Shown piece by piece: positions 2,673-64,000 of a stretch of 64,000 nt of DNA. The stretch is taken from NCBI GenBank assembly GCA_963622135.1, contig CAVFGR010000008.1, positions 150,218-214,217 of the forward strand, given 5' to 3'. The stretch is from a bacterium. GTDB lineage: Bacteria > Bacillota_I > Bacilli_A > RFN20 > CAG-826. Positions within the stretch are counted from its first letter, which is position 1; each line of letters opens with the position of its first letter. Under the pieces are notes generated by a model. That model worked only from the letters and a program-made list of their open reading frames with translations, was not told the DNA's origin and did not search any database. The translations under genes and the position numbers were made by a program.

Positions 2673-2691
2673 ATAATTTGTGAGAACGCTT

Positions 2692-3275: not shown

Positions 3276-3276
3276 G

Positions 3277-3435: not shown

Positions 3436-3438
3436 AAA

Positions 3439-3906: not shown

Positions 3907-3946
3907 AAGCAAAAATGATTATAGCACAATGTTTCCAAGCACTTAA

Positions 3947-3976
3947 TTGGATATGAGCAAATCCGTCTTATACAAT
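3947..3976 (+). promoter_or_regulatory. sigma-A-like promoter candidate for the superoxide reductase gene
   Basis: TTGGAT (3947-3952) followed 16-18 nt later by TATACAAT; AAAGGAGA RBS 8 nt before the ATG at 4000. Confidence 0.4.
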
Positions 3977-3999
3977 GGGCTTAGAAAAAGGAGATAGAT

Positions 4000-4347: not shown

Positions 4348-4381
4348 AAAAATAGATCGGCTCTGGACCGATCTATTTTTG
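4346..4381. terminator. bidirectional rho-independent terminator between convergent sor and gpmA
   Basis: 10-bp perfect stem AATAGATCGG / CCGATCTATT with a 7-nt loop, flanked by an A-run upstream and a T-run downstream. Confidence 0.7.
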
Positions 4382-4389
4382 AGTTAGGT

Positions 4390-7044: not shown

Positions 7045-7046
7045 TT

Positions 7047-8477
7047 TTATCTCCTTTGCATTTCTGCAATTAAAGTTTTAGAAACCTCTGCAGGGTTAAC
7101 TTTTCCTTGGGAGGCCTTCATAACCTGACCAACCAAGAATCCCAAAGCTCTGTCTTTGCCGCCTTTCCAGTCAGCAATCGACTGAGGATTGGCGTCCAAT
7201 ATTTGATTGACAAATTTTAAAATTACCGAATTGTCAGAAATTTGAGCCTTAATACCCAAAGATTCTTGAGCATCTTTTGGCGATTCTCCAGTCGCTAAAA
7301 CCCTTTCCAAAATTTGAATACATTGTTTGTGTTGAAGGCCACCAGTCTCTTGCATCAAAACAATTTCTGATAAAACTTTAGGTTCTAAAGAAAGCTGGCT
7401 GATGGTCAATCCGTTTTTATTTAGATAGCCATTAATTTCAACAATTAAGAAATTAGCTAAGTCTTTAGCATTTTTAACCAAAGACATGCCTTGTTCAAAA
7501 TAAGCAGCCATATTAGTGTCGGAAAGAATGATTGAGGCATCCGAATTATTTAATCCAGCAGCCAAATAACGTTCCTTCTTCGCATCATAAAGTTCAGGAC
7601 AAGAATCTATAGCGTTTTGAACGAACTCATCAGATAACGCAATAGGCGTGATGTTAGGCTCGCAGAAATATTTGTAGTCAACGGCATCCGTCTTGACACG
7701 CATTAAGATTGTCTTCCCGCTAGCTTCGTCATAACGTCTAGTTTCTTGCCTAACTGTGCCTCCAGAAAGGATGACTCTGCTTTGACGTTCGATTTCAAAA
7801 TCTAACGCTTCCTGAATATTTTTCAGGGAATTGAGATTTTTGACTTCAACTTTGGTTCCAAATTTTTCTTGGCCTAACGGACGAATGGAAATATTGACAT
7901 CGCAACGTAATGATCCTTCCTCCATTTTTCCGTCCGATGTTCCAGAGTAAATAACTATGTTTCGGATTGCCTCGACATATTTCATCGCCTCATAACCCGA
8001 TCTAATTTCTGGCAAAGAAACGATTTCAACCAAAGGAGTACCGGCACGGTTGTAATCGAGCAAGGAATAATCAAGGAAATGTTCTTGCTTGCAGGTGTCT
8101 TCCTCCATATGGATACGTTCTATGCCAATGTTCTTTTTAGAGCCATCGGGCATCTCGATGGTCAAATAGCCGTTTTTGCCAATTGGTCTGGCTTGCTGCG
8201 TGATTTGGTACCCCTTAGGTAAATCAGCATAGAAATAATTTTTGCGATCAAAATAAAGGGTATGGTCAATTTCCATATGCAAAGCGTTCGCAACACGAAT
8301 GGCGTTGATGACCGCTTGTTTATTGACCACTGGCATAGCACCAGGATAACCCATATCTAATTCGGTAATCTGAGTGTTTGGTGTTTTAGAGAAACCATTT
8401 GGAGAAGATGAAAACATTTTTGATTTCGTCTTCATTTGAACATGGATCTCAAGACCGATAACAGGTTCGAAATTCAT
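7047..8477 (-). CDS. gatB: Asp-tRNA(Asn)/Glu-tRNA(Gln) amidotransferase subunit B
   Basis: MNFEPVIGLEIHVQ N-terminus and full-length GatB similarity. Confidence 0.95.
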   Translation of the reverse strand: MNFEPVIGLEIHVQMKTKSKMFSSSPNGFSKTPNTQITELDMGYPGAMPVVNKQAVINAIRVANALHMEIDHTLYFDRKNYFYADLPKGYQITQQARPIGKNGYLTIEMPDGSKKNIGIERIHMEEDTCKQEHFLDYSLLDYNRAGTPLVEIVSLPEIRSGYEAMKYVEAIRNIVIYSGTSDGKMEEGSLRCDVNISIRPLGQEKFGTKVEVKNLNSLKNIQEALDFEIERQSRVILSGGTVRQETRRYDEASGKTILMRVKTDAVDYKYFCEPNITPIALSDEFVQNAIDSCPELYDAKKERYLAAGLNNSDASIILSDTNMAAYFEQGMSLVKNAKDLANFLIVEINGYLNKNGLTISQLSLEPKVLSEIVLMQETGGLQHKQCIQILERVLATGESPKDAQESLGIKAQISDNSVILKFVNQILDANPQSIADWKGGKDRALGFLVGQVMKASQGKVNPAEVSKTLIAEMQRR

Positions 8478-9943
8478 AAGTTTCCCTCCTTTTTATTTTT
8501 AACAGATAAGCCATTTAAACCAGTGATATTTTCCAAGGCTGCCGCCATAGATAAAACGGCACTTTCTTCAAAGGCTCTTCCCATAACGTTAACGCCTACT
8601 GGCAAGCCGTTTTCTAAGAAAAGAGGAATGGTGATTGATGGCAAGCCAGCAAAGTTTCCTAATGCTAAATGATTGTCTGCAATCAAATACTCATCACTGA
8701 GTTTGTCGCTCTTAGCATCTTTCTTAGGGGCAACGCTTGGCGCAGCCGGAACATAGATAAAATCGTAATTGGCAAGAATGTCGTTTGTTCTTTTAACGAT
8801 CTTGGCTCTATTTCTTTGGGCGGCAAGGAATAATTCTTCTTGGTTTTCCTTCATCAAGCAGTAGGAACCAATGACGAAGCGGCGCTTGATAAGTTCAGAA
8901 AAGCCTTTAGTCCTCGCTTGATACATTACCTCTTGGTAGGATTTGCCTTCGTAGTAAGGACCAAATTTAATTCCATCCAAATTAGCGTTGTTCGAGGTTG
9001 CTTCAGCACAGCTAATGACCATATAAGTAGCATAAAGCGACGCTAAAGACTCACGACCAAATTCAACATAGTCGACAATCGCGCCCGCATTCCTAAGGGC
9101 CTCCACCGATTTATCAAATTTTTCTATGATTTTGCTATCGGTGATCGAATCAGTGATTTCTTTTAAGACGGCAACTTTCTTACCGCTTATCGAGTCATTT
9201 AGATGTTTGGAATATTGTTCGACTGGTTTTAAGGAGGAAGTCGAATCTTTTTCACATCTCCCTGCAAGAACTTCGAGAGCTAATGCCGCATCTTTGACAT
9301 TGCGGGTGAAATATGCGACATGATCTAGAGATGGGGCAAATGGGAATAGCCCAAAACGAGAGATTCTGCTCCATGTCGGCTTAAAACCAACCAACCCAGC
9401 GTATGAAGCTGGCTTACGAACGGAGTCACCAGTATCGGAGCCTAAAGCGAACGGCACAATAGAAGCCGCCACCGCAGCCGCTGATCCGCAAGAAGAACCA
9501 CCAACAAGTCTGGTCTTACTTTCGTCATACGGATTGTATGTCATTCCCTTATGACCCGTAGTGCCGGTTCCACCCATCGCCAATTCGTCTAGAGTGGTTT
9601 TGCCAATTAGAACGGCTTTCTTATCTTTCAACGCTTTTATGACATGAGCGTCAAACAAAGGAACGTATCCATTAAGGATATTCGAAGAAGCGGTCGTTTC
9701 GATTCCTTTGGTTGAGAAATTATCCTTGGCCAAGAATGGAATGCCCCAAAAAACATTATCGGGTTCCACTTCTTTTAAGTTTTCAGCGAATTCCAATGCT
9801 TCCTTCTCGCAGATTGTTTCAAAGGCATTGTTGTTATCCGACTTAGCGCGGGCAATAGCCTCTTTGGTTAATTCGAGAGGGGTGGTTTCACCTTTAACGA
9901 GAGCCTCGTGAATCTCGGAAATTGATAAATCTAAGTAACTCAT
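8474..9943 (-). CDS. gatA: Asp-tRNA(Asn)/Glu-tRNA(Gln) amidotransferase subunit A
   Basis: Amidase signature GGSSCGSAAAVAA. The true start is ATG at 9941-9943 (MSYLDLSISE) with an AAAGGTGG RBS; the longer track ORF runs into gatC. Confidence 0.95.
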   Translation of the reverse strand: MSYLDLSISEIHEALVKGETTPLELTKEAIARAKSDNNNAFETICEKEALEFAENLKEVEPDNVFWGIPFLAKDNFSTKGIETTASSNILNGYVPLFDAHVIKALKDKKAVLIGKTTLDELAMGGTGTTGHKGMTYNPYDESKTRLVGGSSCGSAAAVAASIVPFALGSDTGDSVRKPASYAGLVGFKPTWSRISRFGLFPFAPSLDHVAYFTRNVKDAALALEVLAGRCEKDSTSSLKPVEQYSKHLNDSISGKKVAVLKEITDSITDSKIIEKFDKSVEALRNAGAIVDYVEFGRESLASLYATYMVISCAEATSNNANLDGIKFGPYYEGKSYQEVMYQARTKGFSELIKRRFVIGSYCLMKENQEELFLAAQRNRAKIVKRTNDILANYDFIYVPAAPSVAPKKDAKSDKLSDEYLIADNHLALGNFAGLPSITIPLFLENGLPVGVNVMGRAFEESAVLSMAAALENITGLNGLSVKNKKEGNL

Positions 9944-9944
9944 A

Positions 9945-10243
9945 TTATCCGACCACCTTTGGCAACTTAATTTGCCCATCCTTCTTGCTTCCAGCATTCT
10001 TAAGGGCCTCTTCTGGCTCATAAGGGGCTGCTGGCTCATCTTCTCTTAAATATGAGGTGACACATTCCGTGAATGGGAATGTCATTGGCTCATATTCCGC
10101 CAAATCCTTTTGATCGCCGATTGTCTTCATTTGGGCGGTGAGAACAGCAAACTCGTTATAAAGGGTTTGATATTCTTCTTCGCTCAAGTCGAAAAGAAGG
10201 CGATTCGCGGCATCTTTTAAGACTTCAATGGTGATAGTTTTCA

Positions 10244-51708: not shown

Positions 51709-52854
51709 ATGAACAATACCAAACGAATCTTATTTTTGCTGCCATTGGCGCTTCCTTTATGTTCCTGCAACACAGGTGCTCCGACCGAGGTCTCTTTCGA
51801 GATGACTTCTAGCGAAACCGCTAGCATCCATACCGAACTTCAGGAAAAATTTTTAAACGTCAAAGAAAACGACTCTTTCATCGCCGCTCAGGGCGATACC
51901 TTCGCTAGGACCTCTCAATCCAAGCCAAATCCCGTCAAATTTTCTTGGAAATATAAGGACGATACGACCAAGAAGCCAAGCAAGGCAATCGTCACCTTGG
52001 CGGAAGACCAGAAGATGTCAATCAACAAGATGTCTTATGCCACCACCGAAAAGGAAATATCCATCTACAATTTGAAGATCAATACAAAGTATTACTACAC
52101 GGTTACTTTGGATTATGATGGGGTGAAGTTCACTTCGGAAATCTATAGCAAAACAATCACCGATAAAGCCATCAGAAATCTATACATTGATGGGGTGAAA
52201 AACGTGAGGGACATCGGCGGATACGAAGTAGATGGCGGCATCATCAAGCAAGGCCTTTTGTACCGTTCGGCGGAATTTAACGGAGAGTTTAATTCCATCG
52301 TTACCGCTTCCGGCAAAGAGGAATTAGTCAACACCTTGGGCATCAAGTCAGATATCGATTTAAGAAGAACCACCGCTTTCGCCCAACCGAAAGACGAGAT
52401 TCATTCAATCACCGAATCACCATTAGGATCGTCCGTCAAATGGGTTTCCCTCCCAATGTATTTCGGCGGAACCAACATCTATACCCAACTTTGCAATACT
52501 GACAATATCAAAGCGTTCTTTGAATATCTGGCTGAACCGACTAATTATCCCGCTATTTTCCATTGTGTTCGTGGCACCGACCGCACCGGAGCGTTGAACT
52601 ACGCCTTAGGAGCCCTTCTCGGCATGAACGAAGAGCAATTGATGAAGGATTATCTTTTCTCCAATTTCGACGATCTTGACTCCGATCCGTTAAAGACAAC
52701 CAATATCTCCGGCAAAGGGATGTATGTCTATCTGATCAATCAAGAAGAAGGAGATACCTTATCTCAGAAAGCCGCCAATTACTTGATGAATAGAATCGGC
52801 GTTTCTCAAGAAACCTTAGATAGCATCAAAAATATCCTCATTGAGAAGAAATAA
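51709..52854 (+). CDS. secreted lipoprotein with protein-tyrosine-phosphatase-like domain (Y_phosphatase3 family, CX5R motif)
   Basis: Lipoprotein signal MNNTKRILFLLPLALPLCSC. Active-site loop HCVRGTDRTG (PF13350 consensus HCtaGkDRTG) in the C-terminal domain. Confidence 0.7.
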   Translation: MNNTKRILFLLPLALPLCSCNTGAPTEVSFEMTSSETASIHTELQEKFLNVKENDSFIAAQGDTFARTSQSKPNPVKFSWKYKDDTTKKPSKAIVTLAEDQKMSINKMSYATTEKEISIYNLKINTKYYYTVTLDYDGVKFTSEIYSKTITDKAIRNLYIDGVKNVRDIGGYEVDGGIIKQGLLYRSAEFNGEFNSIVTASGKEELVNTLGIKSDIDLRRTTAFAQPKDEIHSITESPLGSSVKWVSLPMYFGGTNIYTQLCNTDNIKAFFEYLAEPTNYPAIFHCVRGTDRTGALNYALGALLGMNEEQLMKDYLFSNFDDLDSDPLKTTNISGKGMYVYLINQEEGDTLSQKAANYLMNRIGVSQETLDSIKNILIEKK

Positions 52855-52893
52855 GGCAAAAGAAAAAGCAACCATTCAAGGTTGCTTTTATTT

Positions 52894-53976
52894 TTAGGCT
52901 GCCGCTTCCCACTTGGCTAACAAAGTTAAATTGCCAGGGATAATCGTTAAGTCGGTGAATTGGCCAGAATTAGGATTGGTTGGATCGGTGAACCAGCCTT
53001 TGAAGACATAGCCGTCATATTCAGGGATTTGAATATTGGACAAAGCCATCGTCTTCCCGACATAACCGGTCGAAATGATGGCGTTCGTGCTAGTGGTTCC
53101 AGCCCAATGCCCGCCATTAGGGTCGAACATGATGCTGCAAGGAACGTCGGTCGTTGTCGTTTCGGCCTTCATGCAGAAGAGAGGTGTCCAAGAACCATTG
53201 TTTTTGACGTAAACCCAGCCGGTCGAGATATTGACATAATAGTCACCATCAATGGCGTTAGGGGCGACGATGTCGTTTGGGGTAGAAGCTCCATACATCC
53301 ACTGGGTGGCGTGCGGTTTAGGGAAAGTCAGATCCTCGCTCGTGCCATCGGAATAAGTGACGGTAAGGCAATATTCGGTCGTGGTCTGTTTCGAATCATC
53401 GATGGTTACGGAGGCGATGCCTAAGCCGTTGGTTAAATCCAATTCGACTGGTTCTAGTCCTTCATCGGTGAAAGAAATGACGATATGATAGCCGGTTGCG
53501 GTTGGGGTGGCCACGATGTTGGAGATGCCATTGCCCCTCGGGATGGTAATAACTTGGGAGACGGTCTCATCAGAATAATTGAACTGAAGGGTGGTATTGC
53601 CGTTTTCGTCATGGTCGACAGTGACGCCGGTGACGGAAACGCCCTCATAATAAGGGATGGTAAATGAGATAGGATCAACACTTTCGTCAGAGAAGGTGAT
53701 CGTGATGGTGTAGCTATGATCATCATTGTCTTTCAAAGTGGCCGAAGTGATGGAAACGCCGTCTTTGCCAGGCAATCCCTGTGGGATGGTAACGGTGAAT
53801 GGATCCTTATCCTCGTCGGTGAAATAGAAAGTGATGACGGTGTCGCCCGTAGCGGCGTCATAGCTAGTCTCGAACGAGCTTAAGGCATATTCGTTGCTGC
53901 CAAAAAACCCGCAGCTGGTCAAACCGCCCGCTAATAAGGCTGAGGATAAAGCCAACAATAAACCTTTCTTTCTCAT
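52894..53976 (-). CDS. lipoprotein with five ~35-aa tandem modules and a C-terminal Listeria-Bacteroides repeat domain; last gene of the 8-gene operon
   Basis: Lipoprotein signal MRKKGLLLALSSALLAGGLTSCG. Repeated modules: TVITFYFTDEDKDPFTVTIPQG, YTITITFSDESVDPISFTIPY, TLQFNYSDETVSQVITIPRG, HIVISFTDEGLEPVELDLTNG and CLTVTYSDGTSEDLTFPKP. C-terminal MFDPNGGHW...PEYDGYVFKGWFTD...LTLLAKW matches the Flg_new/LB repeat. Confidence 0.7.
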   Translation of the reverse strand: MRKKGLLLALSSALLAGGLTSCGFFGSNEYALSSFETSYDAATGDTVITFYFTDEDKDPFTVTIPQGLPGKDGVSITSATLKDNDDHSYTITITFSDESVDPISFTIPYYEGVSVTGVTVDHDENGNTTLQFNYSDETVSQVITIPRGNGISNIVATPTATGYHIVISFTDEGLEPVELDLTNGLGIASVTIDDSKQTTTEYCLTVTYSDGTSEDLTFPKPHATQWMYGASTPNDIVAPNAIDGDYYVNISTGWVYVKNNGSWTPLFCMKAETTTTDVPCSIMFDPNGGHWAGTTSTNAIISTGYVGKTMALSNIQIPEYDGYVFKGWFTDPTNPNSGQFTDLTIIPGNLTLLAKWEAAA

Positions 53977-56459
53977 ATACTTGCTCCTTTCGCATAATTA
54001 TCTTGCAAATCCTTGATGGTCGGGGCTTTCCCGAACAATGAAGGGGTATCGGTTCCAACAACGTCGTTGGTAACAAATTTAAACGGATGGGTGCCCGTGG
54101 CCATGATGACCGCTTTGGCGAAGATTTGGGTGTACCACGCTTCGTTGATGAAGCGATTGCCGATATTCGCCGCCACCAAATCGACGATGACATTAGAAGA
54201 AAAATCATTCTCACCGGTCAGAGAAATAACGCCCCAATCGGAGCCGTTCAATCCACCGCCGTAATAGGCAATCTTCGTATTGGCGTATTGTTTTCCGTCC
54301 CTCTCGTATAAGCATCCCATCTCTTTCAAAGATTCTTTAAGCATGCTCTTGATTGGGAAGAAGTCATCGATGGTGATGTTGATGTCATGCCCCGCCAAAG
54401 AGGAGGCGATACTTGAGATATTTTCGTCAATCAATGAAGAGACATCGATGGAATCAACATCCTTCCAATCATAGAAATTGGTGTTCCCTTCAATCGATAA
54501 ATCAATAGGCCTGGAGGTGCCACCGATCATATTCGGAATGACGGTCCCTCCTAATATGGAAGTGACTAGCTGAATCGGTGTCGGAAGCCCAGAGTAGAGA
54601 TAACCGCCATTGAAGGAAGTCTCAAGGGCGATGGAGAAGATGCCGGAATTATAGAAAGCGGTGTCGTTGACCTTCATTTTGTGTGGGGCGTTGAAATTTA
54701 CCGTATTATCTAATGCGTTTTGGGTATGTCCCAGCAATTGGACCATCTCATCATCGCTATAATCCTTGTAAGACTTGGTCACGTATTTTTGAATCAATTG
54801 CATATAAGTGTTGTCGCTTGAAGCCTCGCGACCGCCAAAAGCATTTCCGATAAAAGCCGAATAAATGGAATTGGCCGTCCCCGAAGCGGATGAAGTATCG
54901 CCAAAGAAATCATTGAATGACTTATTGACCGCCTCGTTATGGACATCATATATGACGCTCTTTTCAGAGTTAGGTTTGGAAACATCATTGGATCCGACTT
55001 TGAGCAAGAATTCGCAGGCGTTTCTCAAGATGCAGTTGTCCAATTCGAAACCATCTGCCTCAAAAGCCCTGACGGCCACCTTGCCATTCTGAATAATGGA
55101 GTTGGTGATTTTGTTTCCTTGGCCATAAACGTCCACAACCGTGCCGACATACGTGAGATTGTACATATCGTCGGTATTGTTGGTGTTGGAGACTAGGACG
55201 TTGTCCAAAGTGATGTTGTTGCCGTCAAGGTAAATGCCTGAGTTATCTTGTCCCAAAGCCTTCACCATGAAGTTTTCTTCCAATGGACCGATGGTGACGA
55301 AAGGAAGAGGACCTTTGAAAAGGTCTTCGTCTCCCGGCATCAGTTTGCCATTCTTGCCAATGGATCCATGGCTTGGATAGGCAAGCTCATGGAAATTGAG
55401 CGTGAACCCATTGCCATAGAAATCCTTTTGGACATGGATGCCAGAGATAATCTCTGGTTTGAAGTCCGTCCCCATTTGCGAATTGTACTGATCAATGAAT
55501 TCATGATTGTAAGTTGTCTCGAAACGATAGACATCGTCCGCGAAACTGAATTCTTTGTTCTTCCAATCGTAATGGCCCATCAAGGAAGTGTTGTCTTTGA
55601 GCTTGGTGTCGTTATATCCACCATGCGCATAAACATACGTGTTTTTCATGGACTCGAGGTTCACTTGGAGGACGGCCTTTTCCCCGTTGGAGGAAAGGTT
55701 GGTCGCCATCAATAAGTCATCATAGGAATAGATGTTATAAGCACCGTCGATGACTTCGAATCGATAAGTCCCACGGATCCATGACTGTTCTTTGGAAGCC
55801 AAGGTGAAATACGAATCACCGGCTCCCTTTATGATAATTTTTCCGTCCTCATAATCGAGGTTGGAAGATTTATCCACCAATTCGACTTCTTGACCGATCT
55901 CCGTCTCGAAATAGACGGTCGAATCAAATTCGATGGTGGCTGGTTGGTTACTATAGGAATCCTTGATCAAGGAATTGTAAACAAAGTCGTACATGCCATA
56001 GGTGCGGTATGTTTTCACCGAATTGCCCGAGATGGCACGTTTGTCGTTGATGGTAATCGTCCCGTTTTCGAAAATGGTCGCGGTGAAATAGCGAGATACC
56101 GTTCCTCTTTCGTTGGAACAGGTGACTTTTACGTCCCCTTCCTCTAAAGCATAAAGGAAATAGGAACCGTTGTTTTTCGTGACCGCGGCTTTTTCAGTCG
56201 AGCTGCCATTTAGTTCGCTGACTGACCAAACCAAATCATTGCCAGGGGCCAAAATCAGGGATTCATCGATGCGTGGAGAGGCCTCAAGAGCGATAGGCAT
56301 CGCCGGATCGGCCTTGAACGCCATAGTGTCCAAATACGCCCAATCGATGCCCAAAATATCGGAAGCCACCGTGTTGTTCAAGGCGACGACGGAGACGAAG
56401 GCAAGGATAGCCACGACAAAGGGGATAACCAACAAAATAGGAAGCGTCTTGTTCTTCAT
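53973..56459 (-). CDS. large secreted/anchored right-handed beta-helix (pectate-lyase-fold) protein (~828 aa)
   Basis: N-terminal signal anchor MKNKTLPILLVIPFVVAILAFVSVVAL. PbH1-like repeats follow (NITLDNVLVSNTNNTDD..., ITNSIIQNGKVAVRAFEADGFELDNCILRNA). Start reset to ATG 56457-56459 with a GGAGG RBS; ATGA overlaps at both ends. Confidence 0.65.
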   Translation of the reverse strand: MKNKTLPILLVIPFVVAILAFVSVVALNNTVASDILGIDWAYLDTMAFKADPAMPIALEASPRIDESLILAPGNDLVWSVSELNGSSTEKAAVTKNNGSYFLYALEEGDVKVTCSNERGTVSRYFTATIFENGTITINDKRAISGNSVKTYRTYGMYDFVYNSLIKDSYSNQPATIEFDSTVYFETEIGQEVELVDKSSNLDYEDGKIIIKGAGDSYFTLASKEQSWIRGTYRFEVIDGAYNIYSYDDLLMATNLSSNGEKAVLQVNLESMKNTYVYAHGGYNDTKLKDNTSLMGHYDWKNKEFSFADDVYRFETTYNHEFIDQYNSQMGTDFKPEIISGIHVQKDFYGNGFTLNFHELAYPSHGSIGKNGKLMPGDEDLFKGPLPFVTIGPLEENFMVKALGQDNSGIYLDGNNITLDNVLVSNTNNTDDMYNLTYVGTVVDVYGQGNKITNSIIQNGKVAVRAFEADGFELDNCILRNACEFLLKVGSNDVSKPNSEKSVIYDVHNEAVNKSFNDFFGDTSSASGTANSIYSAFIGNAFGGREASSDNTYMQLIQKYVTKSYKDYSDDEMVQLLGHTQNALDNTVNFNAPHKMKVNDTAFYNSGIFSIALETSFNGGYLYSGLPTPIQLVTSILGGTVIPNMIGGTSRPIDLSIEGNTNFYDWKDVDSIDVSSLIDENISSIASSLAGHDINITIDDFFPIKSMLKESLKEMGCLYERDGKQYANTKIAYYGGGLNGSDWGVISLTGENDFSSNVIVDLVAANIGNRFINEAWYTQIFAKAVIMATGTHPFKFVTNDVVGTDTPSLFGKAPTIKDLQDNYAKGASI

Positions 56460-58072
56460 AAGCGAGCCTCCATATGATAGAAAGCCTTTTTGCAGCGAGT
56501 CCCGATTCCGACAAAGAACGGGGTAAGGCAAATAAGGACGAACGAAATTTCAATGATATAAGCGTAAATAGGCTTCAATCTCGCGTAGGTGGTGAGCAAG
56601 AAATGCGAAGCCAATAAAAGAATAGGCAAGGTAAGGGGAACGAAATTGTTCCAGACCTTAAGCTTTGATTTGGAATCGGTGTGGTCGTGCATGTCAGCAT
56701 AAAGTCCGAAGACATTATTCCAGACGATCATGATGGTTCCGATGATGAAGGATGCTAAAGCGACCTGCCAGGTGATGGAAGAGAAAGCCAGTAAGGCAAT
56801 CAAGGAAACCACAAAGCTCGCTTCCGAGAAAATAAACGGAATGGCTAGCTTGCAGAATATTTGGGTTTTGACTGGAATCGGTAGGTATTTGACGATTTGT
56901 ACGCATTTCTTTTCGCGGCTGATGGATAAGGAAGCCGAAGCGTTGATAACGCCAGCGAAAAGCAAGATAACGCACAGATTAATGGCTGAGACCAATTCAG
57001 GGAAGTAAGCGGCATAGAACTTAAGATCATCAAAGATGACACCGTTTAAGGAAGAGATGACCGCGTAAGTAAGGAATGGGGCCATGATAAGCAACGAAGT
57101 ATAAGAGAACATATTCATGTCATCCCTGAACAAAAGGTCCATTTCTTTTTTAAGAAGGGCTTTGGCCGGAGAGACCATTTTCATCGGTTTCTTATCGATT
57201 TTGACCTTGGCAAGGCGGATATCGCCAGTGCGCATCATCTTCGTGTAGGCGGCAGACGCCACGGTGATACCGATGAACAAAGATAAAACGGTCATGCCCA
57301 AGAAGATGGCGGCATTCTGGAAGATATTGGTGCTCGTAACAACCATCATACAGACATTTCTGACCGGCAATAAGTATGTCGAGGCGTTATCAATCCAATT
57401 CATGAAACTATCGGAGAAAACTCCACCGATGGAAGAATCGCTTAAAGCCATCAAGAACATGTCTAAGGCGAGTTTATAAACGTAACATAAGGCAATCATC
57501 AAGACGCAAGCGATGACAAATTGGGCAATCGCGCTTCTTTTAACCAATTTATACAATGCTTGGTATCCGACCGAGAGAAGAAGCGACATACCGGTCGTGA
57601 ACAAAGAAACGAAGAATGGGTAAAGAATGGCAAATACGATGAACCTCGCGATAAGGCCATGCGAGATGCCAAAACAAATCAGGATAGGGGTGGCGATGAC
57701 GGCTTCCAAAATGATTTGATTAAGATAAACAAAGATAATCTTTGACGAAATAATATCGGATGACGAAATAGGCAAGCTTAGGAGAATGGTGCTGTCTTTT
57801 TGATTAAAGATGGTCTTTCTCGCGGAAACCATCGAATACAGGATGCTAGCCAGCATTCCAATAAATAAGAAGAAGACCAAGAACGAGAAAGAGCCATGGT
57901 CCGAATAGGCTGTGAGCTTTTTATGAATCGCCAAGGTAAGGAAGCATTCCAAGGCGATGAAAATGGCGGCGAAAAGGAGCCTGAACAAATAAGAAAAGAC
58001 AACCGAAAGAACGGATCTGTTGGACAGATTCATTCTGGTTAAGAATTCCTTTCTTATAAGTTCAATGAGCAT
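56456..58072 (-). CDS. ABC transporter permease, ~12 TM (ABC-2/EcsB-like), no substrate-binding protein partner
   Basis: 538 aa of hydrophobic helices, 6 nt downstream of the ABC ATPase gene. Confidence 0.7.
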   Translation of the reverse strand: MLIELIRKEFLTRMNLSNRSVLSVVFSYLFRLLFAAIFIALECFLTLAIHKKLTAYSDHGSFSFLVFFLFIGMLASILYSMVSARKTIFNQKDSTILLSLPISSSDIISSKIIFVYLNQIILEAVIATPILICFGISHGLIARFIVFAILYPFFVSLFTTGMSLLLSVGYQALYKLVKRSAIAQFVIACVLMIALCYVYKLALDMFLMALSDSSIGGVFSDSFMNWIDNASTYLLPVRNVCMMVVTSTNIFQNAAIFLGMTVLSLFIGITVASAAYTKMMRTGDIRLAKVKIDKKPMKMVSPAKALLKKEMDLLFRDDMNMFSYTSLLIMAPFLTYAVISSLNGVIFDDLKFYAAYFPELVSAINLCVILLFAGVINASASLSISREKKCVQIVKYLPIPVKTQIFCKLAIPFIFSEASFVVSLIALLAFSSITWQVALASFIIGTIMIVWNNVFGLYADMHDHTDSKSKLKVWNNFVPLTLPILLLASHFLLTTYARLKPIYAYIIEISFVLICLTPFFVGIGTRCKKAFYHMEARL

Positions 58073-58078: not shown

Positions 58079-58873
58079 TTATTCTTCTCCGTAAGTGCTA
58101 AAGAAGATGCGGGCTAAATCCCTTCTCTTCATTGGGTTCGCCTTGAAATCGATGAGTTCGCTGACGACGCCGTTATTGATGATGGCGACCCTATCGCAAA
58201 CCTTGGTGACTAAATCGATGTCATGGGAGGTGATAAAGACGGTTTTCCCGTTTCTGGCAAACTCTTGGATCATGTCGATCAAGGTCTGATAAACGATGAT
58301 GTCCAAACCGACTGTCGGTTCGTCCATAATCCAAATCTTTGGGTTATGAACCAAGGACGCCATGAGGCAGATTTTCTGCTTCATGCCGTGGGAATAGCCG
58401 CTGATACGACGATTTAAATCCTCTTCAGGCATCTTGAATTTCTTTTGGATGAAGGCCATGTTCTTATCGAAAGCTTCTTGGAACATGCCGTATGAAGAAC
58501 CGATAAACTCAAGATAGTCTTTGCCAGTCATCATCTCATAGGCCGTAGGCTCAGAAGAGACATAACCGATGCATTTTTTGGCTTCCAATGGCTTAAGTTC
58601 GATGTCGTTGTTGCAGACATAGATTTTGCCGGAAGTCGGTTCTTTAAGGCCAACGATGCAATCGATGGTGGTCGATTTGCCGGCTCCGTTTTTGCCAATA
58701 AAGCCAAAGACTTCGCCTTTATGGACTTCAAGGTTGATGCCCATGAGGACGTCTTTGTCGGCATAGGATTTTTTAAGGTCTTCGATCACTAAGACATTAT
58801 TGGGGTCTTCGGATGGGGAAAGCTCTTTTGGCTCTTCGGTTTCTATGAGCAATTGCTCTTCTTTTTCTGCCAT
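58079..58873 (-). CDS. ABC transporter ATP-binding protein (exporter-type, single NBD)
   Basis: Walker A GKNGAGKST, signature ISGYSHGMKQKICLMASL and Walker B IWIMDEPTVGLD; 264 aa. Confidence 0.9.
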   Translation of the reverse strand: MAEKEEQLLIETEEPKELSPSEDPNNVLVIEDLKKSYADKDVLMGINLEVHKGEVFGFIGKNGAGKSTTIDCIVGLKEPTSGKIYVCNNDIELKPLEAKKCIGYVSSEPTAYEMMTGKDYLEFIGSSYGMFQEAFDKNMAFIQKKFKMPEEDLNRRISGYSHGMKQKICLMASLVHNPKIWIMDEPTVGLDIIVYQTLIDMIQEFARNGKTVFITSHDIDLVTKVCDRVAIINNGVVSELIDFKANPMKRRDLARIFFSTYGEE

Positions 58874-60294
58874 TATTTCTTCCTCCTTCCTATACTGGTC
58901 AACCAGACTAAGTCACGGTTGTATTGCGGGAGAATCGAGTAAGCCGTCCCGCAGATGGCGCAGATGTAATTCTCGCCGGTGAATGATATTTCTTCGCTTC
59001 CGCAGAACGGGCAACGGTCGCGATATAAGCCGATCGATGATTCAAACAACATCATCATCGAGGCTAAGACGTTACGGATGAGAACCGCCCCATCCTTGCG
59101 GTAATAAGAGAGGTTTATGACGTCTGCGAATTGCTTAAGGACGTTCTTGGCGGTTATAAGCAAGACATCGTCATATCCTGGTTTGGAATCGATGATGGCC
59201 TGAATGGTCTTTTGATTCCTTTCGGTGTAGGAATGGCTGACGATGAGATAATAGGTGGCTTTTCTCTTTTCGTTGTTCTTCTTCTTACCACCCATATAGA
59301 AGACTTTGCATTCGATTCCGTTGTTTTCTCTATCCAAACGGAAGATGAATGAGAAGTTGTCTTTTCTGACCCTTAGTGACTGCATGTCGATACGGCCATA
59401 TTCATCGATGAAGATGGAAGGGGAATTGTCCGGTTCCATTAACTCGGTCGTCGCGAAGTATTTGGCAAAGCCCGTGATGACATAGTTGTAATAAAGGGCA
59501 TCGTTCTTGCTATCATCGTTCTTATTGCTGTAATAAGAAACGTGCATCTTGTAGCAATAATTGTATTTAGGGTCGTGGATAAGGATATTGGTCGGGATGA
59601 CCGAACGATTGAATTTCTTATTGGAAGAAAGACGATAGAATTCCGTTCCTTTAAGATTCTTCAATCTCTTTTGAAGCTTTCTCACCAAGAGAAGCAATTC
59701 ATCTCTTTTGTCCGATTCAGATGAAATCATGAATGGAGTGTAGGGAGCCTTAGATTTGGCGAATTCCTTAAACATCGATTTCTGGCCAAAGGTCTTATCC
59801 GTCCTTTCGAAGTGTTCCTGCAAGGATTCCACGAGAGGAGAGATGTCGCTCATGATAAGATCGACGTCTTCGGCCAACTCATCGATGAACATCGAGATGA
59901 ATTGATTCTCATAGGTATTTAAGGTCTCGGTGTTTTGCAAGGTGTGGACGAATTCCGGAGACATCCCTCCATTCTTCCTTTTCCAGAGCTTTGGATCCCT
60001 CATCGTTTCCGAGAAGGATTCATGAGACAAAGCCCCGGATAATTCAGAATGAATGATGACTTCCTCGGTCGCCGCTTTGATATGGGGATTGGAGACTATA
60101 GCCATAATCTTGTCGGTGGCCGAGCGAATTCTTTCCGCATGGACTAGCTGTTCTTCACAGTCGAAGTCGACGCTGAAAGGGAAGGAGGCCTCTTTGAACT
60201 CTTCGGAATAGACTTTTAAGCCATTCCCAAGGACATTCTTCAGGCAATCCGTGAAATCTCCTAAAAACGATTGGGAAACTAATTTCTCTTTCAT
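58873..60294 (-). CDS. McrC-like partner candidate: 473-aa protein with putative PD-(D/E)xK-like motif and C-terminal Cys4 zinc ribbon
   Basis: Sits immediately downstream of the McrB-like gene. Possible nuclease core IFIDEYG...(25 aa)...GIECKVFY. Zn ribbon CPFCGSEEISFTGENYICAICGTAY. The family assignment is by context plus weak motifs, not firm homology. Confidence 0.45.
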   Translation of the reverse strand: MKEKLVSQSFLGDFTDCLKNVLGNGLKVYSEEFKEASFPFSVDFDCEEQLVHAERIRSATDKIMAIVSNPHIKAATEEVIIHSELSGALSHESFSETMRDPKLWKRKNGGMSPEFVHTLQNTETLNTYENQFISMFIDELAEDVDLIMSDISPLVESLQEHFERTDKTFGQKSMFKEFAKSKAPYTPFMISSESDKRDELLLLVRKLQKRLKNLKGTEFYRLSSNKKFNRSVIPTNILIHDPKYNYCYKMHVSYYSNKNDDSKNDALYYNYVITGFAKYFATTELMEPDNSPSIFIDEYGRIDMQSLRVRKDNFSFIFRLDRENNGIECKVFYMGGKKKNNEKRKATYYLIVSHSYTERNQKTIQAIIDSKPGYDDVLLITAKNVLKQFADVINLSYYRKDGAVLIRNVLASMMMLFESSIGLYRDRCPFCGSEEISFTGENYICAICGTAYSILPQYNRDLVWLTSIGRRKK

Positions 60295-60329: not shown

Positions 60330-62144
60330 TTATAACTTGCGCAATAAGCGGTCTATCATGTGGTTGGTCTGTGGGAATTTGCCTTCCCCATAGGTTTTGA
60401 TGATCAAAGACTTGAGATTCATCAAGCCTGGCTTGATATAGTCTTCGAAACGTCCGTCTAATTTGGCAACGACCTTGCGGGCGAACATGAAATCCAAGGC
60501 ATCTTCCTTGCTTCCGCCGCATTCGACGAAGACCGGAACAAAGTTCTCAATCTGGTTCATGATACGGTTGCCGTAAGTGATATCGAAGGTATCGTAGGCA
60601 AAGTCAGCGATGATACGGAAATTGTTCATATCCTTATTGGACATCTTGTTTTCTTCTTTGCCTTTGGCTTCGGCAAACAAAGCCTGGAGTTTATCAAAGG
60701 ATAAGGTGATCTTAGAGACATCGCCTTCGATCTCGAATGGCTCGTTGCGGTCATCGAAATCGATGGTAATGGCACGGTCATAAACCTTATCGGTGATGGT
60801 ATAGGTGGAATCATCCTTGTTTGCGGTTCCGATGAAATAGGTGTTGGCAGGAATTTTCAAAATACCGTCCTGCAAATGTTCTGGAGCCTCGAAATCATAC
60901 GGGAACTGCATGATTTTGATCTTCCATTCATCGATTGGATATTCCAAAACCGACAAGAAGTCAGCGAAATAGTATTCAATACGCGAGATATTCAATTCAT
61001 CCAAAACCATGAAGTTCAAATTGCTTGGTTTATAGGAATATTCGTATAAGCGTTTTAAGAATTCGGTTTCGTTATAACTTCTGGAGAAGTCGTTGTAATA
61101 GCCAAGGATGGAGGTTTTATCTCTCCAAGTGGCCTGAACGGCTTCAAAGAAGGATTTCTCGGAAACAAATTCAGAGAAATAACGAGCCAAAGAAGATTTA
61201 CCGGTGCCGGATAAACCTTCAAGGATGATGAAACGGGAAGCGGCCAAACCAGCGACGAATTCGCGGATGATGGTCTCGCTATAATAAAGCTTCAATTCTT
61301 TGGCCAAATAGTTTCTGAATTGAGAGCATAAATCTCTTAAGTTGATGTTGTCGTCGAACATTTGCTCTCTATAGCCAATATAGGCATAATCGACCGAGCA
61401 TAAGCCAGGGAAGACTCTTTCTTTGTCGCTTAAGACACCAGCCTCGCCACCGATTCCAGCTCCGGCCACGCCGTTTCCATTGCCGGCGATGCCATTCCCA
61501 TTAGATTCTCCAAAGGATTCGGCCAAAGAACCTTGATCGGCCATCGCGGCCGCGGCTTCTTCGGCTTCCTTCTTTTCTTCTTCGGCGAGTTCGTCGCCGT
61601 GCTTTCCGAAGAACCTCCAAGGTTCATCGATACGCCTGACATTGACCCATAAGAAGGAAATGTTGAGGATCAATAAGGCCAAGAAGACAAAGAAGATGGT
61701 TCCGACCGCTAAGGACTCAGCGAAATACAAATAGCAGAGTCTTACGGCCTCCGGATTCCATGGATGCAACGAAACATAAGAAATACCGCCAAAGAACGCG
61801 GTAGATAAAATAATCGTCGCAATATAGATAAGGACGTATTTGGCCGAGCCACCCTTCTTTTCGTAATACATCGCGGTGCGATATTCGAAGATGAGGGCGC
61901 TGGTGAGGAACATCGCATAAACGAAGAAGATCAATAACAAGGCCCATCTGTGCCATGTTCCTTCAACGATGATGTTAAATCCTAATGCGATGCCTAATTT
62001 CTGGAACGGGTTGTTCTTAGCGAAGATGCCGATGTCACGATCTAAGCCGAGACCGGCAATAATCACGAACGCCGCCCAGAAAAAGACCACGGTGAGAATA
62101 AGCAAATTCTTACGCGTGAAATGAGTTCTCTTTTTCTTGCTCAT
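60330..62144 (-). CDS. membrane-anchored McrB-like AAA+ GTPase (N-terminal 4-TM domain, Gly/Ala-rich linker, C-terminal McrB/AAA_5 module)
   Basis: Residues 1-160 carry four TM helices. The C-terminal module aligns with E. coli McrB: GLSGTGKSSLARYF (Walker A), VQATWRDKTSILGYYNDF (versus VQFHQSYSYEDFIQGY), FMVLDELNISRIEYYFADFLSVLE (versus FIIDEINRANLSKVFGE) and NTYFIGTANKDDST...DKVYDRAI (versus NVYIIGLMNTADRS...DYALRRRF). ATGA overlap with the sipW-like gene. Confidence 0.7.
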   Translation of the reverse strand: MSKKKRTHFTRKNLLILTVVFFWAAFVIIAGLGLDRDIGIFAKNNPFQKLGIALGFNIIVEGTWHRWALLLIFFVYAMFLTSALIFEYRTAMYYEKKGGSAKYVLIYIATIILSTAFFGGISYVSLHPWNPEAVRLCYLYFAESLAVGTIFFVFLALLILNISFLWVNVRRIDEPWRFFGKHGDELAEEEKKEAEEAAAAMADQGSLAESFGESNGNGIAGNGNGVAGAGIGGEAGVLSDKERVFPGLCSVDYAYIGYREQMFDDNINLRDLCSQFRNYLAKELKLYYSETIIREFVAGLAASRFIILEGLSGTGKSSLARYFSEFVSEKSFFEAVQATWRDKTSILGYYNDFSRSYNETEFLKRLYEYSYKPSNLNFMVLDELNISRIEYYFADFLSVLEYPIDEWKIKIMQFPYDFEAPEHLQDGILKIPANTYFIGTANKDDSTYTITDKVYDRAITIDFDDRNEPFEIEGDVSKITLSFDKLQALFAEAKGKEENKMSNKDMNNFRIIADFAYDTFDITYGNRIMNQIENFVPVFVECGGSKEDALDFMFARKVVAKLDGRFEDYIKPGLMNLKSLIIKTYGEGKFPQTNHMIDRLLRKL

Positions 62145-63394
62145 ATAATGTTCTCCGTATCATCAAGATGATCAAAGAAGGAATCATAATCCTTTTCCTT
62201 TTCGATCTTTGGCTTTTTGCGGGCTTTTTTCTCTTTCACCCGTTTTTTCGAAGGAGCCTCCTCCGTATCGGCTTGCTTTTCCGATTTGGTTTCGCCTACT
62301 GAGACCGCTGGAGAGAAAGGCTTAGCAGGTGATTCTTCTTTTTCGAGCGTCTCCGCTTCAGGCAAAGAAGAAGTTGCCTCTGGCTTGGATTCGCTAAGAG
62401 TCTCTTCCTTATTAGAAGGAATCTTCGCGCCTGCCGATTCTTCGGCGATGGCTTTGTTCACATCAATTCCTTCTAATAAGAAGGAGGTGACGAACTTACC
62501 AGATTCGAAGACATGGCAGTTTCCGTTAAAGAAGATGGTTTCTTTATATTGAGTGACGACAGAATTCTTGTCGTCGACTTCCGGATTGAAGTTGAGGGTC
62601 TCCAAGAGGGTTTTTGTCCTCTCATCGACCGCTTTGGAATACTTATTGCTCAGACGATCGTACATCAATAAGCAATAGATGATGCTGACGATGGTAATGA
62701 TGCCAGCGTTGGATTGGACAAAGATGATGAAGATGCCTAGATCTGGCACTTTATGTCCGGTGTAATAACCAATGATGTCATCATAGGTCAGATAGCCTTC
62801 ATAAAGGTTGTTGTCATCATCGATGGAGTTTTTATCGCCGCGGGTATGATAGGCTTTCGTGCCGTCAGACAGAGTTTCGATAACTCTGATACGATGGACG
62901 ACGACCGTTCCCGAGCGGGATTTATAGGCGATAACATCATATAGATTGATGTCATCTTCGGAATCGTATGGGGCTAAACCGATAATATCGTGCGCATTGA
63001 ACTGATTATCCAAATTGTTTTCCACTAAGTAAGTGTTATTGGAGTTTTGCAACGACATTGAGTCGGTCGCGATGACGATGAAGGAAGCTTTGCCGAACAT
63101 CAACACGTTGTTTGAGAAACGACAATACATCGAAAATACGAAAAAGGCGCTAATGGCGCCCATGATCACGTATTCGGTGATTCGAAGGGCCTTTTTTAAC
63201 CCTCTCTTCGTTTTGTTGTTGGCCTCTTTTTGTTGATAGACGGCTTGCTCGATCAAATCAGCGTCTTCACGGCCGATCTTCACGTTTTCGATGTTCGTGT
63301 AATAGTAATTACGGAACAAGATCGTGAAGACGACCGAGAAACTGATTACGCATACGAGGGTTACCACCAAAGAAATGATTTCTACTGATGACAT
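62141..63394 (-). CDS. sipW: SipW-type (S26B, ER/archaeal-type) signal peptidase I with a ~170-aa charged C-terminal cytoplasmic extension
   Basis: N-terminal TM, catalytic-Ser region IVIATDSMSL, VVVHRIRVIE matching the SipW/Sec11 His box, a second TM LGIFIIFVQSNAGIITIVSIIYCLLMY, then a Lys/Glu/Ser-rich tail. 417 aa versus about 190 aa for B. subtilis SipW. Confidence 0.7.
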   Translation of the reverse strand: MSSVEIISLVVTLVCVISFSVVFTILFRNYYYTNIENVKIGREDADLIEQAVYQQKEANNKTKRGLKKALRITEYVIMGAISAFFVFSMYCRFSNNVLMFGKASFIVIATDSMSLQNSNNTYLVENNLDNQFNAHDIIGLAPYDSEDDINLYDVIAYKSRSGTVVVHRIRVIETLSDGTKAYHTRGDKNSIDDDNNLYEGYLTYDDIIGYYTGHKVPDLGIFIIFVQSNAGIITIVSIIYCLLMYDRLSNKYSKAVDERTKTLLETLNFNPEVDDKNSVVTQYKETIFFNGNCHVFESGKFVTSFLLEGIDVNKAIAEESAGAKIPSNKEETLSESKPEATSSLPEAETLEKEESPAKPFSPAVSVGETKSEKQADTEEAPSKKRVKEKKARKKPKIEKEKDYDSFFDHLDDTENII

Positions 63395-63444
63395 AAGCCC
63401 CTCCTTTTCATGGGTATTATAAGTTTGGTATTAGTATATCAAAC

Positions 63445-64000
63445 TTATTTAGAAGTGACTTCAATTAAGAAACTGACGTTCTTATCCGTTGCGGCTGCAA
63501 CTGCGTTATTCATCGCATTGATGCCTTCGATCGCGGCATTGACCGCAGTCTGATCAGCATCGTTGTTGGCTGGGTTATCATTGCCGAAAGTCGATCCCCA
63601 CATCCAGTTGACCGTGATTGTGACGGTCACAGAAGTATTTGAGGAATCGATGGCGCTGATATTCCAATCGTAGCCGTTTGATAAGGTGCCGGATTTGGTC
63701 GTTCCGCTCTTTTCAGTGGAATAATCAGTTCCGGTGCTGGTATAGAGAGTAACCTTATTTCCCGAATTAGCCGAAGGGTTAGTGATGTAGTTGCTGGTGG
63801 CAAGATCAGTAAGAACCTGCGGATAAGTCGGAGTGATGGTTAATTCATTTAACCTTGTGTTTAAATTCGCGCTTGTGAGCGTGAATTGGAATTGAACGCT
63901 AAGATGTTCGACATCGTTGATTTCTCCGTCTCCGGTAAATCCAGCTTGAATCAAGCCAGTATTATCGGAGGATTCTGGACCAAATACCACATAAGCGGTT
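63445..64000 (-). CDS. secreted Thr/Ser/Asn-rich protein, C-terminal part (gene continues beyond the window end); candidate SipW substrate
   Basis: The ORF stays open to the window edge, and the composition suggests a beta-rich extracellular protein (...SVTVTITVNWMWGSTFGNDNP...). It lies directly upstream of the sipW-like gene, like tapA/tasA in the Bacillus tapA-sipW-tasA arrangement. The N-terminus is not visible. Confidence 0.45.
   Translation of the reverse strand, partial: TAYVVFGPESSDNTGLIQAGFTGDGEINDVEHLSVQFQFTLTSANLNTRLNELTITPTYPQVLTDLATSNYITNPSANSGNKVTLYTSTGTDYSTEKSGTTKSGTLSNGYDWNISAIDSSNTSVTVTITVNWMWGSTFGNDNPANNDADQTAVNAAIEGINAMNNAVAAATDKNVSFLIEVTSK

Follow-up and report, generated by a model that had tools for sequence, protein, structure and literature searches.

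Bacillus subtilis SipW, an S26B signal peptidase, is a precedent for an enzyme of this class that is dedicated to its own substrates; its catalytic residues are Ser47, His87, and Asp106, and its cytoplasmic C-terminal 20 amino acids (aa) have a function separate from catalysis (PMC8767453). Signal-peptidase-like proteins without catalytic residues act as pilus assembly factors (PMC2797073). A third described case is that of the CoCoPALM systems, mentioned in a single paragraph by Bell et al. (2024; eLife 13:RP94800, PMC11090510) with a fuller description deferred; no accessions, peptidase architecture, or substrates were given, and the signal peptidase family proteins linked to McrBC were called likely pilus assembly factors. 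No later paper describing CoCoPALM was found in the literature, where the name occurred only in Bell et al.; there was also no paper linking SipW with Acholeplasma, and papers containing both SipW and McrB did so coincidentally. Here we describe a long SipW/Sec11-type signal peptidase gene encoded beside a membrane McrB-like gene in a stretch of 64,000 nucleotides (nt) of bacterial DNA (GTDB lineage Bacilli_A; RFN20; CAG-826; contig CAVFGR010000008.1, positions 150,218 to 214,217), hereafter called the window. On balance, we lean towards regarding its product as an active S26B peptidase set in a three-helix membrane scaffold and serving a conserved envelope gene cluster as its dedicated processing enzyme.

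The gene and the signals at its two ends were located as follows (positions are those of the window).

62141..63394, minus strand: coding sequence of the long SipW/Sec11-type (S26B) signal peptidase, based on the open reading frame (ORF) list, NCBIfam, homologues, and a SEC11-like fold
63400..63404, minus strand: Shine-Dalgarno sequence GGAGG, 5 nt 5′ of the peptidase ATG, read from the sequence
62141..62144, minus strand: ATGA in which the stop of the peptidase gene overlaps the start of the McrB-like gene (translational coupling)

The ORF starts with ATG and encodes 417 aa plus a stop codon. Its position was as given in the original prediction, which had been made from the sequence alone, and the C-terminal sequence quoted there (...KKRVKEKKARKKPKIEKEKDYDSFFDHLDD) was present in the translation. 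The reported overlap with the start of the membrane McrB-like gene, whose product is 604 aa, was also seen: the peptidase TGA lies at 62143-62141 and the McrB-like ATG at 62144-62142, and the identical 4-nt overlap was observed in loci L001-L007, which belong to the clade of the window. The exact 417-aa protein was found on four public contigs. An origin of the C-terminal tail as a separate ORF joined by a frameshift was looked for. All 12 members of the 90%-identity cluster of the peptidase were 417 aa long, and a single frame ran through the tail in eight orthologous loci (L001-L007 and L081), in which insertions and deletions comprised whole codons and the ratio of nonsynonymous to synonymous substitution rates (dN/dS) of the tail was below 1. 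Because of this uniform length and the frame kept in eight loci, an artefact of assembly, frameshift, or fusion was excluded.

The catalytic part of the protein was mapped to the following positions.

62732..63118, minus strand: extracytoplasmic catalytic domain, aa 93-221 (invariant residues, SEC11 alignment, Foldseek)
63059-63061, minus strand: catalytic residue S112
62894-62896, minus strand: catalytic residue H167
62834-62836, minus strand: catalytic residue D187

Assignment to the SipW type was borne out by the conserved Ser, His, and Asp, the SEC11-like fold, and the NCBIfam matches to SipW and archaeal signal peptidase I. Alignments of 31 and 93 homologues and comparison with SEC11A/C agreed with the claim that the catalytic Ser and His boxes are retained. 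The pairs S112-M113, H167-R168, and G186-D187 were invariant or nearly so in both alignments, with S112, M113, H167, G186, and D187 invariant across the 93 homologues. The alignment pairs H167 and D187 with the SEC11A/C boxes VHR and GDNN. The Ser box, which reads TDSMS (ATDSMS) in the window protein and SGSMS in most relatives (family consensus VIASGSMS), is in register with VVLSG(S/A)MEP of SEC11A, in a sub-alignment that is not significant alone. The His-Asp spacing is 20, compared with 19 in B. subtilis SipW, and the Ser-His spacing is 55, compared with 40 between Ser47 and His87 of SipW (PMC8767453), the latter being longer because of a conserved insertion after the Ser box. An inactive homologue was ruled out by the invariance of Ser, His, and Asp in 93 sequences, and the protein is probably active as a peptidase, as judged from these residues.

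The NCBIfam models for SipW (NF046067) and archaeal signal peptidase I (TIGR02228) matched at E values of approximately 4e-13, over residues 128-247 only. A distant relative, L085, scored 59.4 on TIGR02228, above the cutoff, its residues 64-239 aligning to model positions 2-155 of 158. A Pfam scan of the peptidase gave nothing meaningful. The best sequence matches in PDB were human SEC11A and SEC11C (7p2p, 7p2q), with E values of 2.7e-5 for the single sequence and 2.8e-9 for the family profile. An AlphaFold2 (AF2) model built with 93 sequences was confident for residues 1 to approximately 270, with predicted local distance difference test (pLDDT) values of 80-89 in the core. Foldseek returned SEC11C (7p2q_A, E 6.5e-5) and SEC11A (7p2p_A, E 1.1e-4) as the top matches, with TM-scores of 0.59-0.62 on the target; the lambda repressor C-terminal domain ranked next, with SpsB and LepB after it. 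Judged from the alignments and the predicted structure, the assignment to a divergent S26B (SipW/Sec11) peptidase is sound.

Outside the catalytic core, transmembrane (TM) helices and added modules were recognized as follows.

63317..63382, minus strand: extra N-terminal helix TM1, aa ~5-26, absent from canonical SipW
63182..63316, minus strand: cytoplasmic helical loop, aa 27-71 (45 aa, basic)
63119..63181, minus strand: TM2, aa 72-92, the canonical N-terminal anchor of SipW/Sec11 (AF2 helix 61-93)
63002..63055, minus strand: family-specific insertion, aa 114-131 (~15-18 aa), lying after the Ser box and before the next strand
62660..62731, minus strand: TM3, aa 222-245, C-terminal anchor as in SipW
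62477..62659, minus strand: conserved cytoplasmic segment, aa 246-306 (alignments, AF2)

The original prediction had described only the two TM helices flanking the catalytic domain and had ascribed the doubled length to one charged tail of about 170 aa. Three membrane helices were found instead, the extra one being N-terminal, and the additional length was made up of four parts: the N-terminal TM with its loop, the insertion after the Ser box, the segment following TM3, and a disordered tail. As for the tail itself, 172 residues do follow the last TM, of which ~60 at the start are conserved and only residues ~307-417 are of low complexity. Overlooked in that prediction were the extension at the N-terminus, the insertion behind the Ser box, and the upstream genes for the probable substrates.

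TM1 had a Kyte-Doolittle maximum of 2.8, corresponded to an AF2 helix spanning residues 3-40 (pLDDT 83-92), and was conserved in the family. The loop that follows contains 10 K+R versus 6 D+E, with G41 and D44 invariant, and the hydropathy of TM2 (19-aa window) was just under the 1.6 threshold. In the insertion, N120, Y122, L128, and Q131 are conserved. TM3 had a Kyte-Doolittle maximum of 2.2, an AF2 helix spanning residues 229-267, and a conserved FxQSxxGIxT motif; segment 246-306 consists of a helix prolonging TM3 (R259 invariant, L263) and then a three-stranded beta meander at 284-306 (F296). Most homologues span approximately 72% of the query, to about residue 300, as counted over 96 homologue clusters. 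The catalytic domain contains 9 K+R versus 19 D+E. These features fit a topology in which the N-terminus is outside, the loop inside, the catalytic domain outside, and the C-terminus inside. Being conserved family-wide, loop 27-71 and residues 246-306 appear to be better candidates for a docking surface than the tail.

The tail, residues ~307-417, is 111 aa long, rich in Glu, Lys, Ser, Ala, and Pro, and could be divided into two parts.

62195..62476, minus strand: disordered, charged, fast-evolving linker, aa 307-400
62144..62194, minus strand: conserved C-terminal motif, aa 401-417, EKDYDSFFDHLDDTENII, acidic and amphipathic

The disorder check that had been suggested for this region placed it on the disordered side of the charge-hydropathy plot, and pLDDT was below 50 from residue 317 onward. 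Across 93 homologues, the portion beyond residue 306 measured from 0 to 237 aa (median 59), was always charged or polar, and could not be aligned. Selection was analyzed by comparing the window protein with six orthologues (L001-L005 and L007) of 74-92% overall identity. The core (residues 1-306) gave dN/dS values of 0.05-0.07 and identities of 79-95%, the linker (residues 307-400) gave 0.31-0.53 and 60-79%, and the last 17 residues gave 0.03-0.19 and 88-94%. Since dS was not lowered in these 17 residues, it is the protein that is constrained, rather than the ribosome-binding site overlapping this stretch. The 17-aa motif was found in proteins P0001-P0009, among which P0008 and P0009 keep it though their linker is half as long; within it, AF2 placed a low-confidence helix at residues 408-415. 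In other clades, the amphipathic element that often closes the tail is a different one (for example, NFFNKLKAKF, SFIDTIKSFF, or SLTEFIKEL), and an amphipathic pattern near the C-terminus was present in 34 of 84 tails, compared with 12.1 expected from shuffles (approximately 3-fold).

The tail is thus best described as a flexible tether with a short constrained motif. The suggestion that it docks the peptidase to the downstream machinery is plausible from these sequence patterns: supporting it, the last 17 residues are constrained as strongly as the core while the linker is relaxed; against it, the tail has no family-wide alignment and varies in length down to nothing. In locus L039, the McrB-like gene lies approximately 70 nt downstream of a short-tailed 333-aa peptidase. 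Because this locus keeps the cluster, the tail is not essential for the association with the McrB-like gene.

For synteny, one genome per species was scanned; 163 species had a relative, and 80 loci were read. All 80 came from uncultured gut Bacilli, the metagenome-assembled genomes (MAGs) being labeled, for example, Mollicutes, Bacillales, Acholeplasmatales, Anaeroplasma, Candidatus Onthovivens, or Candidatus Enteromonas. Some MAGs carrying the Bacilli-type cluster (L007, L014, L015, L049, L052, L069, and others) bore labels such as Alistipes, Bacteroides, Prevotella, or Lachnospiraceae and look mislabeled or mis-binned. A gene order was kept that ran from the peptidase through the McrB-like GTPase, a McrC-like protein, an ATP-binding cassette (ABC) ATPase, a permease, and an exported protein of ~830 aa to a lipoprotein. 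The peptidase gene was followed by the McrB-like gene in 80 of the 80 loci and directly adjoined it in 77, which strongly supports the association proposed in the original prediction. As for the co-occurrence of similar tails with the McrB-like gene, a check suggested there, the gene was found throughout, and the tail could not be aligned across the family.

Upstream of the peptidase, the window contains part of a further gene, here called X.

63445..64000, minus strand: gene X, truncated at the end of the window so that only its 3′ part is present, encoding a secreted beta-sandwich protein, a candidate substrate

A full-length copy, P0097 (271 aa), is 98% identical to the window X and has the signal peptide ...SVGSVGFASWVISGG. 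Upstream of the peptidase in 75 of the 80 loci, 191 X genes were found, in 1-6 tandem copies (for example, L007 8195-9097 and 9120-9968); 189 of them were connected by BLAST, and the proteins were 205-310 aa long. The N-termini of the X proteins consist of a Lys-rich start and a hydrophobic stretch of 16-20 residues, followed by G-F-[AS]-[ST]-W-[VI]-[IV], with conservation of 92-96% at the G, F, and W. Across ~1.3 Mb of loci, this motif had 156 strict matches, 148 of them in upstream X genes; a gene that closely follows the cluster accounted for six of the others, and two were chance matches inside the McrB-like membrane domain. The post-cluster gene carries the motif as GFSSW[IL].. and was seen at L020 20187-20711, L026 11929-12498, L031 18557-18829, L033 20355-20912, L059 20040-20735, and L068 20134-20766; it had no counterpart in the window. 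X proteins also share a conserved C-terminal motif, F.WG..F...NP. The AF2 model of P0097 was a confident beta-sandwich (pLDDT ~90 for residues 50-271) with the N-terminal 48 residues unstructured. X proteins matched no Pfam or NCBIfam family and had no solved relative. From gene position and the shared motif, the X proteins are most likely the substrates of the peptidase.

We infer the activity of the peptidase, the identity of its substrates, the cleavage site, and docking along the following lines. The X proteins would be exported by Sec, with signal peptides ending in G-F-[AS]-[ST]-W-[VI]-[IV], and the peptidase would cut them on the external side of the membrane, at one of two places: behind G-F-A/S or, three to four residues further along, behind W-[VI]-[IV]-[SGNT]. 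The insertion beside the catalytic Ser probably gives the substrate groove a shape suited to this motif. Loop 27-71 and segment 246-306 would together form a cytoplasmic surface missing from canonical SipW, and this surface might couple the peptidase to the McrB-like GTPase, the McrC-like partner, and/or the ABC transporter. The tail would serve as a disordered, lineage-variable tether, carrying in the clade of the window a basic stretch and then the constrained acidic amphipathic motif, which is most likely a short linear motif binding a cytoplasmic partner.

Several observations weigh against a dedicated, active processing enzyme of this kind. On TIGR02228, the score of residues 128-247 was 49.3, that is, 2.5 bits under the cutoff of 51.85, and on the SipW equivalog NF046067 it was 49.5 bits, for a cutoff of 190 bits. 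The (-3, -1) rule is compatible with two candidate sites, after G-F-A/S and after W-[VI]-[IV]-[SGNT]. Locus L039 has ample upstream sequence and no adjacent X gene, and some homologues have little or no tail, among them the short-tailed 333-aa peptidase of L039, which keeps the cluster. In view of the equivalog score, the length of 417 aa compared with ~190 aa, and the three TM helices with added modules, the peptidase is not a SipW orthologue. In L039 ('Clostridium sp. CAG:568'), only opposite-strand genes lie directly upstream (6230-9980), and substrates may be encoded elsewhere.

The other genes of the cluster and the element at its end were as follows, with the number of loci in which each was found where counted.

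60330..62144, minus strand: membrane McrB-like GTPase, 604 aa (Pfam AAA_5, McrB 6hz4 match)
58873..60294, minus strand: McrC-like protein, 473 aa (Pfam DUF2357, E 1.7e-6, above its cutoff); DUF2357 (McrC-like) protein in 77 of 80 loci
58079..58873, minus strand: ABC transporter ATPase, 264 aa (Pfam ABC_tran, E 1.3e-27); 76 of 80 loci
56456..58072, minus strand: ABC-associated polytopic membrane protein (permease), 538 aa (PF09847 12TM_1 recorded for the L081 orthologue); 73 of 80 loci
53973..56459, minus strand: large protein, exported or anchored, of 828 aa when read from the ATG at 56459; ~830-aa exported protein in 67 of 80 loci
52894..53976, minus strand: lipoprotein, 360 aa, with lipobox LTSC and a Listeria-Bacteroides repeat, last gene of the cluster; 58 of 80 loci
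52864..52889, no strand assigned: bidirectional terminator-like hairpin after the last cluster gene, with a 10-bp stem and T tracts on both sides

Missing cluster genes were mostly due to contig ends, and the last gene was without a BLAST match in L056, L073, and L076. The McrB-like protein matched E. coli McrB (6hz4) at E 5.5e-4 and has a conserved Walker A (GLSGTGKS, invariant), Walker B (VLDELN), and N-K-D signature. In 76 sequences, N442 and D444 were invariant, position 443 was K in 75 and R in one, and position 445 was D in 60 and E in 16; an ungapped pairwise alignment to E. coli McrB would also permit an NxxD reading. In the CoCoNuT-like branch, the signature is NxD, after which E or another D usually comes (PMC11090510), so the NxD(D/E) signature found here points to that branch. 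Four hydrophobic segments precede Walker A in 71 of the 76 sequences, replacing the DNA-binding domain, with only a short charged helix-like stretch after TM4. In PADLOC, a match was obtained only for the GTPase part, to the candidate defense protein PDC-M26A (E 1.2e-37), with none for the peptidase or the McrC-like protein. Besides DUF2357, the McrC-like protein has a conserved C-terminal CxxC...CxxC zinc ribbon, and its conservation profile, computed from 74 sequences, contained no conserved nuclease motif.

For the large exported protein, the ORF list gave a TTG start inside the permease gene (852 aa, 53973-56531), while the orthologues were called at 828 aa; no Pfam or NCBIfam match was found for the 828-aa protein. 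Further overlaps were observed in the window between ATG 56459 and the permease stop (4 nt), at 58873, and at 53973-53976; with these junctions, much of the cluster looks translationally coupled. The hairpin at 52864-52889 separates the convergent genes 52894-53976 (minus strand) and 51709-52854 (plus strand) and is likely a bidirectional terminator marking the end of the cluster. In L060 (11006-13660), and also in L057 and L065, the peptidase and McrB-like genes are separated by an additional gene for an 884-aa secreted protein. L007 has, upstream of the cluster (1437-4800), a gene pair repeated three times, in which a protein of ~130-145 aa (…GPSMRYGNTRGAHHRGEV…) comes first and a Cys-rich zinc-ribbon protein of ~175 aa (MDKTLKQIKPMDCPVC…) second; the array resembles toxin/immunity cassettes.

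Four other explanations were weighed against that of a dedicated processing enzyme, and none of them is favored. The protein could be the housekeeping type I signal peptidase of a reduced, Mollicutes-like lineage, its place in the cluster being incidental and its extra parts serving membrane stability. The gene was present in every related genome sampled (163 species matched, 80 loci read), and a search with a SipS sequence detected no P-type (LepB/SipS-like) peptidase in the window and the 80 loci, a tiny share of each genome. Many nearby exported proteins are lipoproteins, as in Mollicutes, so that few signal peptidase I substrates may exist. However, the gene holds a strictly fixed place, flanked by the X array and the McrB-like gene and with frequent stop-start overlap, and the peculiar signal-peptide motif is confined to cluster genes; distant relatives are still linked to X-like genes in other contexts, and SipW of B. 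subtilis provides a precedent for substrate-dedicated S26B enzymes (PMC8767453). We consider this explanation quite unlikely. It is rather unlikely, too, that residues 307-417 are a functionless, drifting appendage of low complexity. Such drift would agree with a tail that varies between 0 and 237 aa, resists alignment, has a uniformly charged or polar composition and pLDDT below 50, and is short in L039 with its cluster intact, but the linker dN/dS of 0.31-0.53 lies under neutrality, the last 17 residues are at 0.03-0.19 with normal dS, the motif is kept in P0008 and P0009 despite the half-length linker, and amphipathic C-terminal patterns exceed shuffles ~3-fold.

A role in defense, in which the cluster would act against phages or in conflicts as an McrBC-type system (Type IV restriction-like, CoCoNuT-like) and the peptidase would be its effector or activator instead of an enzyme of secretion, is very improbable. 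It is suggested by the McrB-like neighbor with its DUF2357 McrC-like partner, by the PDC-M26A match of the GTPase part (E 1.2e-37), and by the NxD(D/E) signature of the CoCoNuT-like branch (PMC11090510). The same gene order, however, was kept in 80 of 80 loci of one lineage and is not patchy as in defense islands, the McrB-like N-terminus is formed by four TM segments and is not DNA-binding, the McrC-like protein has no conserved nuclease motif, PADLOC matched neither this protein nor the peptidase, and the remaining cluster genes encode exported proteins and an ABC transporter. Least credible of all is an inactive, signal-peptidase-like assembly chaperone resembling streptococcal SipA of sortase pilus clusters. 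Proteins of this kind, devoid of catalytic residues, do act in pilus assembly (PMC2797073), and the McrBC-linked family members were taken by Bell et al. for likely pilus assembly factors (PMC11090510); here, Ser, His, and Asp are invariant in 93 sequences, and the protein belongs to S26B (Ser-His-Asp), whereas SipA belongs to S26A (Ser-Lys).

The dedicated processing enzyme may be placed in a wider frame, which we put forward tentatively and as rather less probable than not. Wall-less or reduced gut Bacilli may possess an envelope machine not described before, in which the peptidase acts as the processing subunit, coupled to GTPase-driven fiber assembly. The membrane-embedded NxD McrB-type GTPase, the nuclease-less McrC partner, and the ABC transporter may then drive the export and polymerization of small beta-sandwich subunits into a surface fiber, the cleaved X N-terminus (…W-V-I…) might act as a donor strand, and the cytoplasmic domain with the tethered motif may couple cleavage to the GTPase cycle. 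Should this hold, a restriction-type motor would have been repurposed for protein assembly.

The wider family of the peptidase was surveyed by an exhaustive profile search, which gave at least 462 clusters (50% identity) at E <1e-30. Most of the best matches listed begin at the extra N-terminal helix. For none of 96 listed homologues was a Pfam domain on record, and only one of them was named. Four distant, long SipW-like members of 525-770 aa were found without an adjoining McrB-like gene.

L084, 4359-6290: distant member
L085, 751-3063: distant member
L086, 886-2463: distant member
L087, 985-2691: distant member

These are flanked by X-like genes of ~200 aa whose signals end in G-[FY]-[AS]-x-W, and their cytoplasmic C-termini comprise acidic linkers and one or two copies of a domain of ~100 aa (...YRKGRK..AKL.IRGK.L.VYLALDP...), for which no match was found in Pfam, NCBIfam, or PDB. 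In L084, an MreB gene follows the distant peptidase. The pairing of the peptidase with a motif-bearing protein, and a variable cytoplasmic C-terminal module, appear to be general in the family; the McrBC/ABC association is limited to one of its branches.

The S26B chemistry and the idea of a dedicated SipW-type peptidase were already known, and the association of McrBC with a peptidase had been flagged once, the link between McrBC homologues and signal peptidases having been only a one-paragraph remark. New are the architecture of the peptidase, the family of probable substrates with its motif, the way in which selection acts on the tail, and the conserved cluster as a whole. A large and essentially unannotated family of ER-type signal peptidases is thereby defined, with a new architecture of three TM helices and cytoplasmic modules, and in one branch of it the peptidase goes together, gene by gene, with a McrBC-like GTPase pair, with an ABC transporter, and with arrays of secreted proteins that share a private signal-peptide motif. 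Interest stems mainly from the system to which the peptidase belongs. The cluster is widespread in a group of abundant uncultured gut bacteria; if it builds a surface structure, it would represent a new assembly pathway and a non-defense use of McrBC.

Compared with known systems, the peptidase resembles B. subtilis SipW in its Ser-His-Asp chemistry of family S26B, in having a TM anchor on either side of the catalytic domain, and in being encoded beside the secreted proteins it would process (PMC8767453, PMC11580942). By analogy with SipW, its cytoplasmic C-terminus may have a role beyond catalysis. The locus is not an operon of the tapA-sipW-tasA type, as no adjacent TasA/camelysin-family substrates with a SipW-cognate signal peptide were found. 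SEC11A/SEC11C and archaeal Sec11 are the best matches in sequence and fold and share the His and Asp boxes; unlike SEC11, which works in a four-subunit complex and has a single N-terminal anchor, the window protein is one polypeptide with three TM helices and cytoplasmic modules. Like streptococcal SipA/LepA and S. suis SipF, it is a signal peptidase homologue encoded inside a possible surface-fiber cluster beside the genes of the subunits (PMC2797073). Those proteins, however, are P-type S26A peptidases (Ser-Lys) that work with sortases on cell-wall-anchored pilins, and SipA, lacking catalytic residues, is thought to be a chaperone, whereas the triad of the cluster peptidase is intact. No sortase match was obtained among the scanned cluster proteins, in which LPXTG motifs were not searched for.

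With McrBC Type IV restriction systems, the cluster shares the motifs of the McrB AAA+ GTPase; it differs in having a 4-TM N-terminus in place of a DNA-binding domain and no conserved nuclease motif in the McrC-like protein. The likeness to CoCoPALM extends to the NxD GTPase, its N-terminal membrane fusion, the DUF2357 McrC-like partner, and the signal peptidase family protein. The published fusion is FtsB-like, with a single TM and a coiled-coil, and coiled-coils occur on both McrB and McrC (PMC11090510), whereas four hydrophobic segments are present here; five diverse McrB-like N-terminal regions gave no DivIC/FtsB Pfam match at E values up to 10, in a search below the sensitivity of HHpred. 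Compared by the published description only, the cluster is at least closely analogous to CoCoPALM.

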